Assembly: GCF_054482525.1 (NCBI RefSeq)
Contig: NZ_CM137006.1
Reading direction: 5' to 3' (one strand)
DNA length: 64,000 nt
Positions within the stretch are counted from its first letter, which is position 1; every line of letters begins with the position of its first letter. Both the position numbers and the translations under genes were made by a program. Shown here piece by piece: positions 24,314 through 35,128 of the stretch. The notes under the pieces are model-generated. The model saw only the letters and a program-made list of their open reading frames with translations. It did not search any database and was not told the DNA's origin.

Positions 24314-24835
24314 ATGAAACATTCATTTGAAGTAAAACTTGCCGCTGTAAATCACTACCTGGCTGGTCATGCAGGCATCATTTCTACGGCAAAACTCTTT
24401 CAACTTTCTCACACCAGCCTCTCACACTGGATTAATCTTTTTCTTCTTCACGGTCCTCGGGCACTGGATTGCAGACACAAGCGTAGCTATTCTCCTGAAG
24501 ATAAACTTTGCGTGGTTCTTTATGCTCTCGGGCATTCTGAGTCTCTACCCCGGGTAGCTGCCCGGTTTAACATTCCCAGCCACAACACGGTTAAAAACTG
24601 GATAAAAGGCTACCGCAAATCTGGTAATGAGGCCTTTATCAGGCGCAGGAAGGAGAAAAGCATGACCCGTTCTGATGATACCCATGAAAACGAGGCAAAC
24701 ATGACGCCGGAAGAGATGAAGAATGAGCTGCGTTATCTTCGCGCAGAAAATGCATATCTGAAAGCCATGCAGGAGCATCTCCTGGAAAAAAAGCGCCAGG
24801 AGCTGGAGAAAAAACGAAAGTCATCCGGAGCCTGA
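24314..24835 (+). CDS. IS3-family transposase OrfA (helix-turn-helix and leucine-zipper part)
   Basis: ORF-track 24305..24835 (GTG) with likely ATG at 24314 (MKHSFEVKL) preceded by AGGTG; ends just after the slippery heptamer A-AAA-AAG at 24787-24793. Confidence 0.85.
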   Translation: MKHSFEVKLAAVNHYLAGHAGIISTAKLFQLSHTSLSHWINLFLLHGPRALDCRHKRSYSPEDKLCVVLYALGHSESLPRVAARFNIPSHNTVKNWIKGYRKSGNEAFIRRRKEKSMTRSDDTHENEANMTPEEMKNELRYLRAENAYLKAMQEHLLEKKRQELEKKRKSSGA

Positions 24836-24939
24836 GGTGCGGACACTGCCAGTCTGACCTGTTAAAGGCTGCAGGGCTGGCCAGAAGCACGCTGTACTAC
24901 CAGCTGTCACTGCAGAAGGCTAAGGACAAGTATGCTGAT

Positions 24940-25694
<755 letters not shown>

Positions 25695-31393: not shown

Positions 31394-31422
31394 AGAGCCA
31401 GCACCCGCTGGCTCTTTTTTTA
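31394..31422 (+). terminator. asnS rho-independent terminator
   Basis: Stem AGAGCCAGC/GCTGGCTCT with 4-nt loop followed by a T-run. Confidence 0.7.
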
Positions 31423-31769
31423 TCCTTTCTGTCAAGTTATCTGTTTGTTAAGTCAAGCAATCTATTTGCAACCCCACCATAACGATCATCCTGTTACGGA
31501 ATATTACACTGCAACATTTGCGCACAAAAAATAATCCGCATTCTTATTGCGGATTAGTTTTTTCTTAGCTGATAGCACAATTTTCATACTGTTTTTTGGC
31601 GTTCTGGATGTCTGAATGAGGATTTAGCGCCAGGTCGATAAAGTTTCCATCAGAAACAAAATTTCCGTTTAGTTAATTTAAATATAAGGAAATCATATAA
31701 ATAGATAAATATTGCTGTAAATATCATCACGCTTCTATGGAAATATGACGGTGTTCACAAAGTTCCTTA

Positions 31770-31840
31770 AATTTTACTTTTTGTTACATATTTTTTCTTT
31801 TTGAAACCAAATCTTTATCTTTGTAGCACTTTCACGGTAG
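31770..31840 (+). promoter_or_regulatory. ompF promoter-proximal OmpR binding region (F1-F3-like boxes)
   Basis: Tandem elements TTTACTTTTTGTTACATATTT / TTTCTTTTTGAAACCAAATCT / TTATCTTTGTAGCACTTTCAC about 150-210 nt upstream of the ompF ATG, matching the remembered K-12 ompF regulatory region. Confidence 0.65.
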
Positions 31841-31982
31841 CGAAACGTTAGTTTGAATGGAAAGATGCCTGCAGACACATAAAGACACCAAACTCTCATC
31901 AATAGTTCCGTAAATTTTTATTGACAGAACTTATTGACGGCAGTGGCAGGTGTCATAAAAAAAACCATGAGGGTAATAAATA

Positions 31983-33056
31983 ATGATGAAGCGCAATATT
32001 CTGGCAGTGATCGTCCCTGCTCTGTTAGTAGCAGGTACTGCAAACGCTGCAGAAATCTATAACAAAGATGGCAACAAAGTAGATCTGTACGGTAAAGCTG
32101 TCGGTCTGCATTATTTTTCTAAAGACAATGGTGTAAACAGTTACGGCGGAAACGGCGACAAAACTTATGCCCGTCTTGGTTTTAAAGGGGAAACACAAAT
32201 CAATTCCGATCTGACCGGCTACGGTCAGTGGGAATATAACTTCCAGGGTAACAACTCTGAAGGCGCTGATGCCCAGAAAGGTAACAAAACTCGTCTGGCA
32301 TTCGCAGGTCTGAAATTCGCTGATGCGGGTTCTATCGACTACGGTCGTAACTACGGTGTGGTTTACGACGCACTGGGTTACACCGATATGCTGCCTGAGT
32401 TTGGCGGTGACACGGCATACAGCGATGACTTCTTCGTTGGTCGTGTAGGCGGCGTTGCTACCTATCGTAACTCCAACTTCTTCGGTCTGGTTGACGGCCT
32501 GAACTTTGCCGTTCAGTACCTGGGCAAAAACGAACGTGCTGGTATTCCTGAGCGTTCCAACGGCGACGGCGTCGGTGGCTCTATCAGCTACGAATTCGAA
32601 GGCTTTGGTATCGTAGGTGCTTACGGTGCAGCAGACCGTACCGACGCCCAGGAAGCCGAATTCCGCGGTCAGGGTAAAAAAGCTGAACAGTGGGCAACTG
32701 GTCTGAAGTATGACGCGAACAACATCTACCTGGCAGCGAACTACGGTGAAACCCGTAACGCTACGCCAATTGAAGGCGGCTTCGCCAACAAAACGCAAGA
32801 CGTTCTGTTAGTTGCGCAATACCAGTTCGATTTCGGTCTGCGTCCGTCCATCGCTTACACCAAATCTAAAGCGAAAGACGTAGAAGGTATCGGTGATGTT
32901 GATCTGGTGAACTACTTTGAAGTGGGCGCAACCTACTACTTCAACAAAAACATGTCCACCTATGTTGACTACATCATCAACCAGATCGATTCTGACAACA
33001 AACTGGGCGTAGGTTCTGACGACACCGTTGCAGTGGGTATCGTTTACCAGTTCTAA
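31983..33056 (+). CDS. ompF: Outer-membrane porin OmpF (357 aa, loop-variant allele)
   Basis: ORF track; signal peptide [22 protein letters not shown], mature N-terminus [11 protein letters not shown]-terminal VYQF; differs from remembered K-12 OmpF (362 aa) mainly in predicted external loops. Confidence 0.95.
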
Positions 33057-33081: not shown

Positions 33082-33111
33082 AAAAAACAGGACTTTGGTC
33101 CTGTTTTTTTT
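33082..33111 (+). terminator. ompF rho-independent terminator
   Basis: Stem AACAGGAC/GTCCTGTT with 4-nt loop followed by an 8-T run. Confidence 0.75.
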
Positions 33112-33240
33112 ATGCCTTCCAGAGCAATCTCACGTCTTGCAAAAACAGCCTGCGTTTTCATCAGTAATAGTTGGAATTTTGTAAATCTCCCGTTACCCTG
33201 ATAGCGGACTTCCCTTCTGTAACCATAATGGAACCTCGTC

Positions 33241-34431
33241 ATGTTTGAGAACATTACCGCCGCTCCTGCCGACCCGATTCTGGGCCTGGCCGATCTGTTT
33301 CGTGCCGATGAACGTCCCGGCAAAATTAACCTCGGGATTGGTGTCTATAAAGATGAGACGGGCAAAACCCCGGTACTGACCAGCGTGAAAAAGGCTGAAC
33401 AGTATCTGCTCGAAAATGAAACCACCAAAAATTACCTCGGCATTGACGGCATCCCTGAATTTGGTCGCTGCACTCAGGAACTGCTGTTTGGTAAAGGTAG
33501 CACCCTGATCAATGACAAACGTGCTCGCACGGCACAGACTCCGGGTGGCACTGGCGCACTACGCGTGGCTGCCGATTTCCTGGCAAAAAATACCAGCGTT
33601 AAGCGTGTGTGGGTGAGCAACCCAAGCTGGCCGAACCATAAGAGCGTCTTTAACTCTGCAGGTCTGGAAGTTCGTGAATACGCTTATTATGATGCGGAAA
33701 ATCACACCCTTGACTTCGATGCACTGATTAACAGCCTGAACGAAGCTCAGGCTGGCGACGTAGTGCTGTTCCATGGCTGCTGCCATAACCCAACCGGTAT
33801 CGACCCTACGCTGGAACAATGGCAGACACTGGCACAACTTTCCGTTGAGAAAGGCTGGTTACCGCTGTTTGACTTCGCTTACCAGGGGTTTGCCCGTGGT
33901 CTGGAAGAAGATGCTGAAGGACTGCGCGCTTTCGCGGCTATGCATAAAGAGCTGATTGTTGCCAGTTCCTACTCTAAAAACTTTGGCCTGTACAACGAGC
34001 GTGTTGGCGCTTGTACTCTGGTTGCTGCTGACAGTGAGACCGTTGATCGCGCATTCAGCCAAATGAAAGCGGCGATTCGCGCTAACTACTCTAACCCACC
34101 AGCACACGGCGCTTCTGTTGTTGCCACCATCCTGAGCAACGATGCGTTACGTGCGATTTGGGAACAAGAGCTGACTGATATGCGCCAGCGTATTCAGCGT
34201 ATGCGTCAGTTGTTCGTCAATACGCTACAGGAAAAAGGCGCAAACCGCGACTTCAGCTTTATCATCAAACAGAACGGCATGTTCTCCTTCAGTGGCCTGA
34301 CAAAAGAGCAAGTGCTGCGTCTGCGCGAAGAGTTTGGCGTGTATGCTGTTGCTTCTGGTCGCGTAAACGTGGCCGGGATGACACCAGATAATATGGCTCC
34401 GCTGTGCGAAGCGATTGTGGCAGTGCTGTAA
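33241..34431 (+). CDS. aspC: Aspartate aminotransferase AspC
   Basis: ORF track, 396 aa; PLP fold-type I aminotransferase; starts [16 protein letters not shown]. Confidence 0.95.
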
Positions 34432-34446
34432 GCGTTAAAAACAATG

Positions 34447-34472
34447 AAGCCCGCTGAAAAGCGGGCTTTTTT
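34447..34472. terminator. Bidirectional terminator between convergent aspC and gloC
   Basis: Stem GAAGCCCGCT/AGCGGGCTT with GAAA loop, T-run on + and A-run (T-run on minus strand) flanks. Confidence 0.7.
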
Positions 34473-34480
34473 ATGCGCCT

Positions 34481-35128
34481 TTACCAGACGGGCATTTCGT
34501 CTTGCAGGAAGGGATTATGCAGGCGCTCATAACCAAGTGTGGATAATGGTCCGTGACCCGGAATAAATGTCACGTCATCCCCCAGTGGCAGCAACTTATC
34601 TTTGATTGAAGAAATCAGTTGATTATGATCGCCACGCGGGAAGTCACTGCGCCCTACTCCGCCTTTGAAAATAACGTCGCCAGAAATCAGCAGCTTTGCC
34701 CGATCATCAAAAAACACGACATGACCCGGCGTATGCCCAGGGCAATGTAACACCTGTAAAGCCACATTCCCTATGCTGATGGTATCGCCTTCGTTCAGCC
34801 AACGATCTGGCGTCAGCGGCTGGCACTCTTCCAGACCAAACATACGACTTTGCGCAGGCAAGCCTTGCAGCCAGAACTCATCTTCTTTTTCCGGGCCAAA
34901 AACCGGCACGCCGTAATGTTGCGCCAGTTCCGCCGCTGCGCCAACGTGGTCCAGATGACCATGCGTCAGCAGGATCTGCATCAGTGTCAGGCCGCTGGCG
35001 TCAACTTCCTGTTTGATTTTTTCCGCATCGCCGCCAGGATCGACCAGTGCGGCCAGACGGGTTTGTTCACACCAGATCAATGAACAGTTCTGGGAGAATG
35101 CGGTGACCGGAATAATACGATAGTTCAT
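34481..35128 (-). CDS. gloC: Metallo-beta-lactamase-fold hydroxyacylglutathione hydrolase GloC (YcbL)
   Basis: ORF track, 215 aa; HGHLDHVG metal-binding motif. Confidence 0.9.

Follow-up and report, generated by a model that had tools for sequence, protein, structure and literature searches.

An OmpF porin allele with altered surface loops, encoded on a divergent and recombined block of the Escherichia coli ompF gene

Results

The ompF Locus and Its Surroundings

The window, by which we mean the whole stretch of 64,000 nucleotides that was analyzed, carries ompF in the gene order asnS-ompF-aspC, which arrangement is the same as in E. coli MG1655 (Table 1). The encoded protein scored 751.9 bits against the NCBIfam OmpF equivalog profile NF007446, above the cut-off of 583, and remained below the respective cut-offs of the PhoE profile (486 bits, cut-off 599) and the OmpC profile (465 bits, cut-off 484); a match to the Pfam family PF00267 (Porin_1) was obtained with an E-value of 6e-137. 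Profile, synteny, the predicted 16-strand fold with its inward-folded L3, and the pore residues considered below all conform to what is expected of an OmpF general porin.

The roughly 160 bases directly 5' of the start codon, which stretch we presume to represent the promoter-proximal region plus the 5' UTR, are identical in K-12 and the window and exhibit only 0–2 differences per 60 nt among the E. coli sampled. A consensus promoter scan of the ompF strand returned no promoter, though such a scan is uninformative for an OmpR-dependent one; nor was the terminator-like hairpin 3' of the stop codon listed by that simple scan, the element having been read off the sequence itself. From 31821 to 32099, before and into the gene, the 0–2 differences per 60 nt in the sampled E. 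coli compare with 0–7 in E. albertii and in a second Escherichia species representative (L074). The A-run ending at 31957 is one A longer in the window and in K-12 than in five strains having the same allele (IAI39, SMS-3-5, MRY15-117, WB61, and 2016C-3878), and the distal asnS-ompF intergenic DNA (31410–31810) contains about 18 mismatches to K-12 per 400 bp.

Two further peculiarities of the surroundings were recorded. An IS3-like transposase of the IS1397 family, with a programmed frameshift, is located between pepN and ssuB at about 24314–25662, a position transferred to the window from the SCU-102 record, to which it is identical there. In the aspC-gloC spacer (about 34392–34620) the window is without some 170 bp that are present in K-12, and strains sharing the window ompF allele differ there from one another by 10–14 mismatches per 200 bp; this spacer is probably a variable repeat-element site.

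Table 1. Features of the ompF locus in window coordinates; residues in precursor numbering unless indicated, loop limits from the DSSP strands of the model.
Feature	Coordinates	Strand	Remarks
asnS	end at 31380		gene 5' of ompF
Stretch directly 5' of start codon	31821..31982	+	zero differences from K-12
ompF CDS	31983..33056	+	357 codons plus TAA, ATG start; from the open-reading-frame list and the sequence
Signal peptide	31983..32048	+	22 codons; protein and DNA as in K-12
Divergent haplotype block	32100..32777	+	678 bp; 85 of the 87 nucleotide differences from K-12, both indels
L1, codons 47-61	32121..32165	+	G48D, E51V, M60K
L2, codons 89-101	32247..32285	+	T99K; latching-loop E71 (mature) kept
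Periplasmic rim, turn T2, codons 112-118	32316..32336	+	Y112F, V115A, F118I; conservative, not surface-exposed
L3, constriction loop, codons 125-153	32355..32441	+	protein as in K-12; 7 synonymous, 0 non-synonymous differences
L4, codons 181-195	32523..32567	+	1-aa insertion plus D>G, T>I, A>P, R>E (mature R167E)
Codon 205	32595..32597	+	Y>F (mature Y182F); last strand residue, adjoins periplasmic turn T4
L5, codons 219-232	32637..32678	+	six substitutions
L6, codons 259-269	32757..32789	+	short form; K-12 with 6 extra residues (TNKFTN)
L8, codons 334-347			unchanged from K-12
Terminator-like hairpin, then T run	33082..33112	+	AAAAAACAGGAC-TTTG-GTCCTGTTTTTTTT; 3' of the stop codon
aspC	33241..34431		gene 3' of ompF

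Differences from K-12 OmpF and Their Location in the Protein

An earlier note on this DNA, which was made from the sequence alone and had quoted parts of the K-12 protein, described an OmpF allele deviating from that of K-12 in four segments, all of them assigned to surface loops. By direct alignment with the K-12 OmpF of the PDB entries and of MG1655 (b0929), we found every one of the quoted K-12 strings to be exact and recovered the four differing segments as given, so that neither a misquotation nor identity with K-12 accounts for the reading: the two proteins are distinguished by 20 substitutions, a 1-aa insertion in L4, and a 6-aa length difference in L6. Their identity is about 92–94%, varying with the method, and the mature net charge is –14 in the window protein as opposed to –12 in K-12. 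The signal peptide and the C-terminus with VYQF are, as had been noted, the same in both, the last 92 residues being identical. The alignment added five substitutions that the note had not listed (in mature K-12 numbering, T77K, Y90F, V93A, F96I, and Y182F), the first within L2, the next three around the periplasmic turn T2, and the last adjoining turn T4.

For the placement of these changes we used an AlphaFold2 model of the window OmpF, computed from a 50-sequence alignment and having a mean pLDDT of 82, which prediction superimposed in Foldseek on the K-12 OmpF structure 2ZFG with TM scores of 0.92/0.97 and an rmsd of 1.1 A. The localization of the differences to the surface then held in the main but not throughout: L1, L2, L4, L5, and L6 together account for 16 of the 20 substitutions and for the two indels, whereas the other four substitutions (Y112F, V115A, F118I, and Y205F in precursor numbering) are conservative changes at strand ends around T2 and T4, on the periplasmic rim. 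The enrichment in extracellular loops was significant both over the mature protein (Fisher p = 1.9e-5) and within the divergent block alone (p = 4.9e-4); under the loop limits of the model, then, the clustering is far above chance, yet not confined to the loops.

L3, L7, and L8 are unchanged. The constriction zone of OmpF is lined by K16, R42, R82, and R132 together with D113 and E117; all of these, as well as E71, R100, G119, and G120 (mature numbering), are as in K-12, and the PEFGG motif and the C-terminal Phe are likewise kept. K-12 OmpF (b0929; PDB 2OMF, 2ZFG, and 1OPF, among others) is an orthologue at the same locus, alike in signal peptide, barrel, L3, L7, L8, and C-terminus. Since R167 of L4 is located at the pore mouth, its replacement by glutamate may have a modest effect on permeability.

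A Contiguous Divergent Block

At the DNA level the differences from K-12 are gathered into one stretch, whose first differing base is 32102 and whose last is 32775, with zero differences on either side in 31801–32100 and in 32783–32982. Within this block 85 of 675 sites differ, against 2 of 396 in the remainder of the gene (Fisher p = 1e-15). A two-breakpoint maximum chi-square procedure selected the L4-L5 core (gene positions 549–689) rather than the block as a whole, for which reason the limits were derived from the outermost bases that differ, and were then subjected to the Fisher test. Divergence from K-12 amounts to 12.6% inside 32100–32777 and to only about 1% over the 7 kb around ompF, the 5' and 3' parts of the gene itself being 100% and 99.3% identical to K-12.

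Pairwise Nei–Gojobori estimates between the window and K-12 gave a dS of 0.51 and a dN of 0.054 for the block, as compared with 0.023 and 0 for ompF outside it (where no dN/dS is therefore given), which represents an approximately 20-fold higher synonymous divergence in the block than in the remaining gene. In the variable loops (L1, L2, L4, L5, and L6 together) dS was 1.15 and dN 0.18; in L3 the corresponding values were 0.47 and 0, for a dN/dS of 0. The block holds about 58 synonymous and about 27 non-synonymous differences in all.

Allele Class, Carriers, and Recombinants

The window ompF is 100% identical in DNA to that of E. coli SCU-102, annotated as WP_000977905.1, which protein is also annotated in IAI39, SMS-3-5, CE10, MRY15-117, WB61, and 2016C-3878. 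Typing against the known ompF allele groups, a check that the earlier note had suggested, accordingly places the allele in the CE10/IAI39 type; it is common and already described, and hence not new. Over 24 kb around ompF the sequence is identical in SCU-102, 19KM1776, and PCN033, the last of which belongs to group D by the old three-marker PCR. IAI39, SMS-3-5, and CE10 are phylogroup F references from early-branching lineages.

Among 5,426 complete E. coli genomes, 486 matched the block at 99% identity or more and 4,924 at 80–90%, just 12 genomes being intermediate; in each of the best 60 matching complete genomes, which come from varied laboratories and hosts, the block was 100% identical. 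Six carriers compared in detail had zero differences in the coding region from 32010 to 32991, despite a divergence of about 1% in the flanks; the window and IAI39, for instance, show 0 differences in 982 bp where about 10 would be expected from the flanks. A uropathogenic isolate in the sample, U12A, has the K-12-type block.

The suggestion that the variation is mosaic was borne out in two ways. A hybrid protein, WP_000977907.1 (strains 67-1 and MLI023K2), is encoded by a gene that is of the window type at all 14 variant positions between 32102 and 32195 and of the K-12 type from 32219 onward, which locates the crossover between 32196 and 32218; this hybrid has the left block edge and the L1 module in common with the window, but differs from it in having K-12-type L2, L4, and L5, a long L6, and in addition V115I. 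Furthermore, 765 genomes matched the L1 segment at 95% identity or above and 488 the L4-L6 segment, indicating that about 5% of genomes possess the L1 module alone.

Several sequences encountered along the way are recorded here in their own right. In strain ETEC4085, whose allele is otherwise of the K-12 type, the L3-coding stretch 32360–32419 has 2 mismatches to the window type versus 5 to K-12, which patch looks, from its sequence, like a small conversion tract. The blood isolate E. coli elppa9 carries the window allele (at 701–1778 of its record) with a 4-base length change and is annotated there as having a frameshifted pseudogene; porin loss among clinical isolates is exemplified by this strain. 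Two database proteins from short ENA contigs, P0009, in which the N-terminal third of OmpC is joined to a window-type OmpF, and P0008, in which the N-terminal half of K-12 OmpF is followed by a Citrobacter-like C-terminal half, may be assembly chimeras rather than true recombinants.

Placement of the Block Relative to Other Species

The orthologues compared, taken from among the matches listed, came from E. albertii, from L074, and from several Citrobacter plus Superficieibacter; the trees were built by neighbor-joining with bootstrap on these few outgroups, to which neither E. fergusonii nor any of the cryptic Escherichia clades belonged. Identity of K-12 across the block amounts to 89.5% with E. 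albertii, 92.3% with L074, and only 87.4% with the window, which outside the block is 99–100% identical to K-12. In the block tree the window falls outside a group formed by the other E. coli, L074, and E. albertii (92% bootstrap) while remaining inside Escherichia relative to Citrobacter (100%) and among the ompF orthologues, whereas the tree built from the remaining ompF sequence has it nested within E. coli (98%). The two trees, together with the contrast in dS, attribute different histories to the parts of the gene.

The form of the loops bears on the polarity of the changes. The earlier note had L6 six residues shorter than in K-12, which length is correct; but the window has the short form in common with Citrobacter, E. 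albertii, and L074 as well as with PhoE, which makes the TNKFTN of K-12 a derived insertion; the window allele carries no deletion. The TDAQ motif of L5 is similarly ancestral-like, being shared with Citrobacter, OmpC, or PhoE. The window L4 sequence AGIPE, for its part, was absent from all 12 outgroup orthologues aligned.

A donor lineage was sought among the matches listed from species-representative genomes and in a search of 5.8 billion proteins, and none was found there; the 90% protein cluster of the allele consists of E. coli only among the members listed, and the next clusters are from Citrobacter, at 87%. An import and a long-maintained polymorphism are both compatible with this result. 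A separate observation concerns E. albertii NBRC 107761, whose L1 segment (aligned to 32120–32239) is only 2 nt per 120 away from K-12 while the neighboring segments are 5–15% away, which closeness hints, as far as the alignment goes, at an exchange of modules between species.

Discussion

Recombination versus Diversification in Place

With considerable confidence, we identify the feature as the chromosomal ompF of a phylogroup D/F-type E. coli, of the CE10/IAI39/SMS-3-5 allele class, most probably encoding a normal porin with a recombined old segment and an altered outer face. The window allele is the outcome of a recombination of old haplotypes and not of a recent point-mutational diversification: the gap in dS between the block and the rest of the gene, along with the sharp edges, points to a homologous recombination that involved an ompF haplotype of old or foreign origin.

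The earlier note had instead favored diversifying selection, in which scenario point mutations and small indels would have accumulated in place under pressure from phages and colicins. That proposal does account for the concentration of 16 of the 20 changes in extracellular loops (p = 1.9e-5) and for a dN of 0.16–0.35 in L4-L6 that is more than 10-fold above that of strands and turns (0.013), and ompF has been listed as positively selected by earlier genome scans (Chen 2006; Petersen 2007; both as cited in Chen et al., 2021, 10.1101/2021.09.21.461324). What the proposal does not accommodate is the DNA in which those changes are embedded. Recent selection on scattered loop mutations would hardly leave one contiguous block of 678 bp in which some 58 synonymous differences accompany the 27 or so non-synonymous ones, with zero differences on either side; nor does dN/dS exceed 1 in the variable loops, the pairwise value being 0.11 for the block, 0.15 for the variable loops together, and at most 0.38 for any single loop (L6), while L3 has accumulated 7 synonymous changes and not one non-synonymous. 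The position of the block outside E. coli plus E. albertii in the tree, and the ancestral-like character of the short L6 and of the TDAQ of L5, argue in the same direction. As the sole process, diversification in place is thus largely refuted, and we consider it improbable. That the core is conserved and the loops are variable is, as judged from these rates, the signature of purifying selection on an old divergent haplotype.

Other explanations of the block fare worse still. A porin paralogue in the same genome, such as ompC or phoE, might be entertained as the source of the block by gene conversion, in view of the conserved stretches that the porin paralogues have in common, and the database protein P0009 does resemble an OmpC/OmpF fusion; yet at the 87 differing sites ompC agrees with the window at 36 and with K-12 at 31, and phoE at 32 and 29, respectively, a site-by-site comparison that showed no bias toward either allele and upon which conversion from ompC or phoE was rejected. 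Since, moreover, both ompF alleles are equally far from ompC (70%) and from phoE (63%), and the block groups with ompF orthologues, we regard such an origin as very improbable. Still closer to negligible is an ordinary vertical divergence, by which the whole genome would be as distant from K-12 as the block is: the closest genomes do include the group D strain PCN033, and IAI39, SMS-3-5, and CE10 are early-branching members of phylogroup F, but the comparison of the flanks, which deviate from K-12 by only about 1% around a gene whose ends are nearly or fully identical to it, led us to reject this possibility, and the K-12-type block of the uropathogenic U12A speaks against it as well. A sequencing or assembly artefact, or a chimera, we hold to be just as improbable; the protein database does include short metagenome contigs of chimeric appearance, though nothing of that kind is specific to the window, and the block recurs unaltered in the best 60 complete genomes and at 99% identity or above in 486, six of which were inspected in detail.

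Regarding the age and route of the recombined haplotype, we advance only tentatively, and with more doubt than conviction, that the block is older than the split between E. coli and E. albertii, that it reached its present position through either a trans-species polymorphism or an import, and that it then spread without variation among D/F-type lineages. By the first of these routes, the polymorphism would have been maintained within E. coli through frequency-dependent selection exerted by phages or CDI systems; by the second, the block would have been imported from an unsampled Escherichia-like lineage. Whatever the route, the divergence of the segment equals or exceeds that split in depth, and we infer that homologous recombination placed or kept the segment there; parts of it, the L1 module for example, have subsequently recombined again into K-12-type alleles.

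Consequences for the Porin and Its Ligands

The sequence predicts that the window ompF would yield a normal trimeric 16-strand general-diffusion porin, which expectation follows from the identity with K-12 of the signal peptide, the C-terminal Phe, L3, the pore residues checked, and the 160 bases upstream; normal regulation may be supposed along with normal function. The outer face would be altered in L1, L2, L4, L5, and L6 by way of a single internal segment instead of recent point mutation. In view of the literature on OmpF loops, an altered recognition by those ligands that dock onto the loops is plausible, as with OmpF-dependent phage adhesins, CdiA-type domains, antibodies, and perhaps colicin N, whereas little change would be expected in the permeation of solutes and in the uptake of colicins that thread through the lumen. 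A PDB search and limited literature searches returned neither a solved structure nor a phenotype for this allele, the literature having yielded nothing beyond general remarks.

About 9% of the sequenced E. coli display an OmpF surface (L1, L4, L5, and L6) unlike that of K-12, and about 5% more are altered in L1 only, in which strains host-range predictions made from K-12 OmpF may therefore fail. This consideration is relevant to users of phage therapy or bacteriocins, though its practical value is limited. The allele opens no new question; the block serves rather as a textbook case of how protein differences clustered in loops may be mistaken for the work of recent positive selection, where at the DNA level a recombined old haplotype is revealed.

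Comparison with Known Systems

Chen et al. (bioRxiv 10.1101/2021.09.21.461324) have already recognized the mosaic nature of ompF. They distinguish five hypervariable regions (HVRs), of which HVR2 is located at the periplasmic face and the other four in extracellular loops, and from whose combinations five major groups result; the CE10 OmpF is modeled as the exemplar of one group. That CE10 protein is identical to the one encoded in the window, so that nothing differs in the molecule, and the five HVRs as set out there, including the periplasmic HVR2 and the correspondence of L5 and L6 to HVR4 and HVR5, coincide with the five clusters into which the differences described above fall. In the passages of that main text considered here there is no dating at the nucleotide level by the limits of the block, its dS, or its placement relative to E. 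albertii, which elements the present analysis supplies.

As to the ligands, OmpF is a receptor for Tevenvirinae and Gp38 phages, and mutations in its L5, L6, and L7 are described as blocking phage K20. In the OmpF of Citrobacter rodentium, an insertion in L4 blocks the StbD receptor-binding domain but not the import of colicin E5. A loop polymorphism of OmpC gates CdiA-EC536, for which toxin the OmpF of K-12, 536, Salmonella, and Enterobacter cloacae all supported adhesion. These receptors resemble the window OmpF in combining variable surface loops with a preserved pore, and there the loops gate the recognition involved in toxin delivery; the CdiA-EC536 polymorphism, however, resides in OmpC, and the window allele lies outside that set of four OmpF alleles. 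Parallels in organization are found in genes such as fhuA of E. coli, porB of Neisseria, and ompF of Yersinia, in all of which, as here, a conserved framework is combined with recombining hypervariable loop modules. The window type departs from those three in consisting of one long block with all the modules together in most carriers, the L1 module being the only one that was seen on its own in the E. coli ompF genes considered here.
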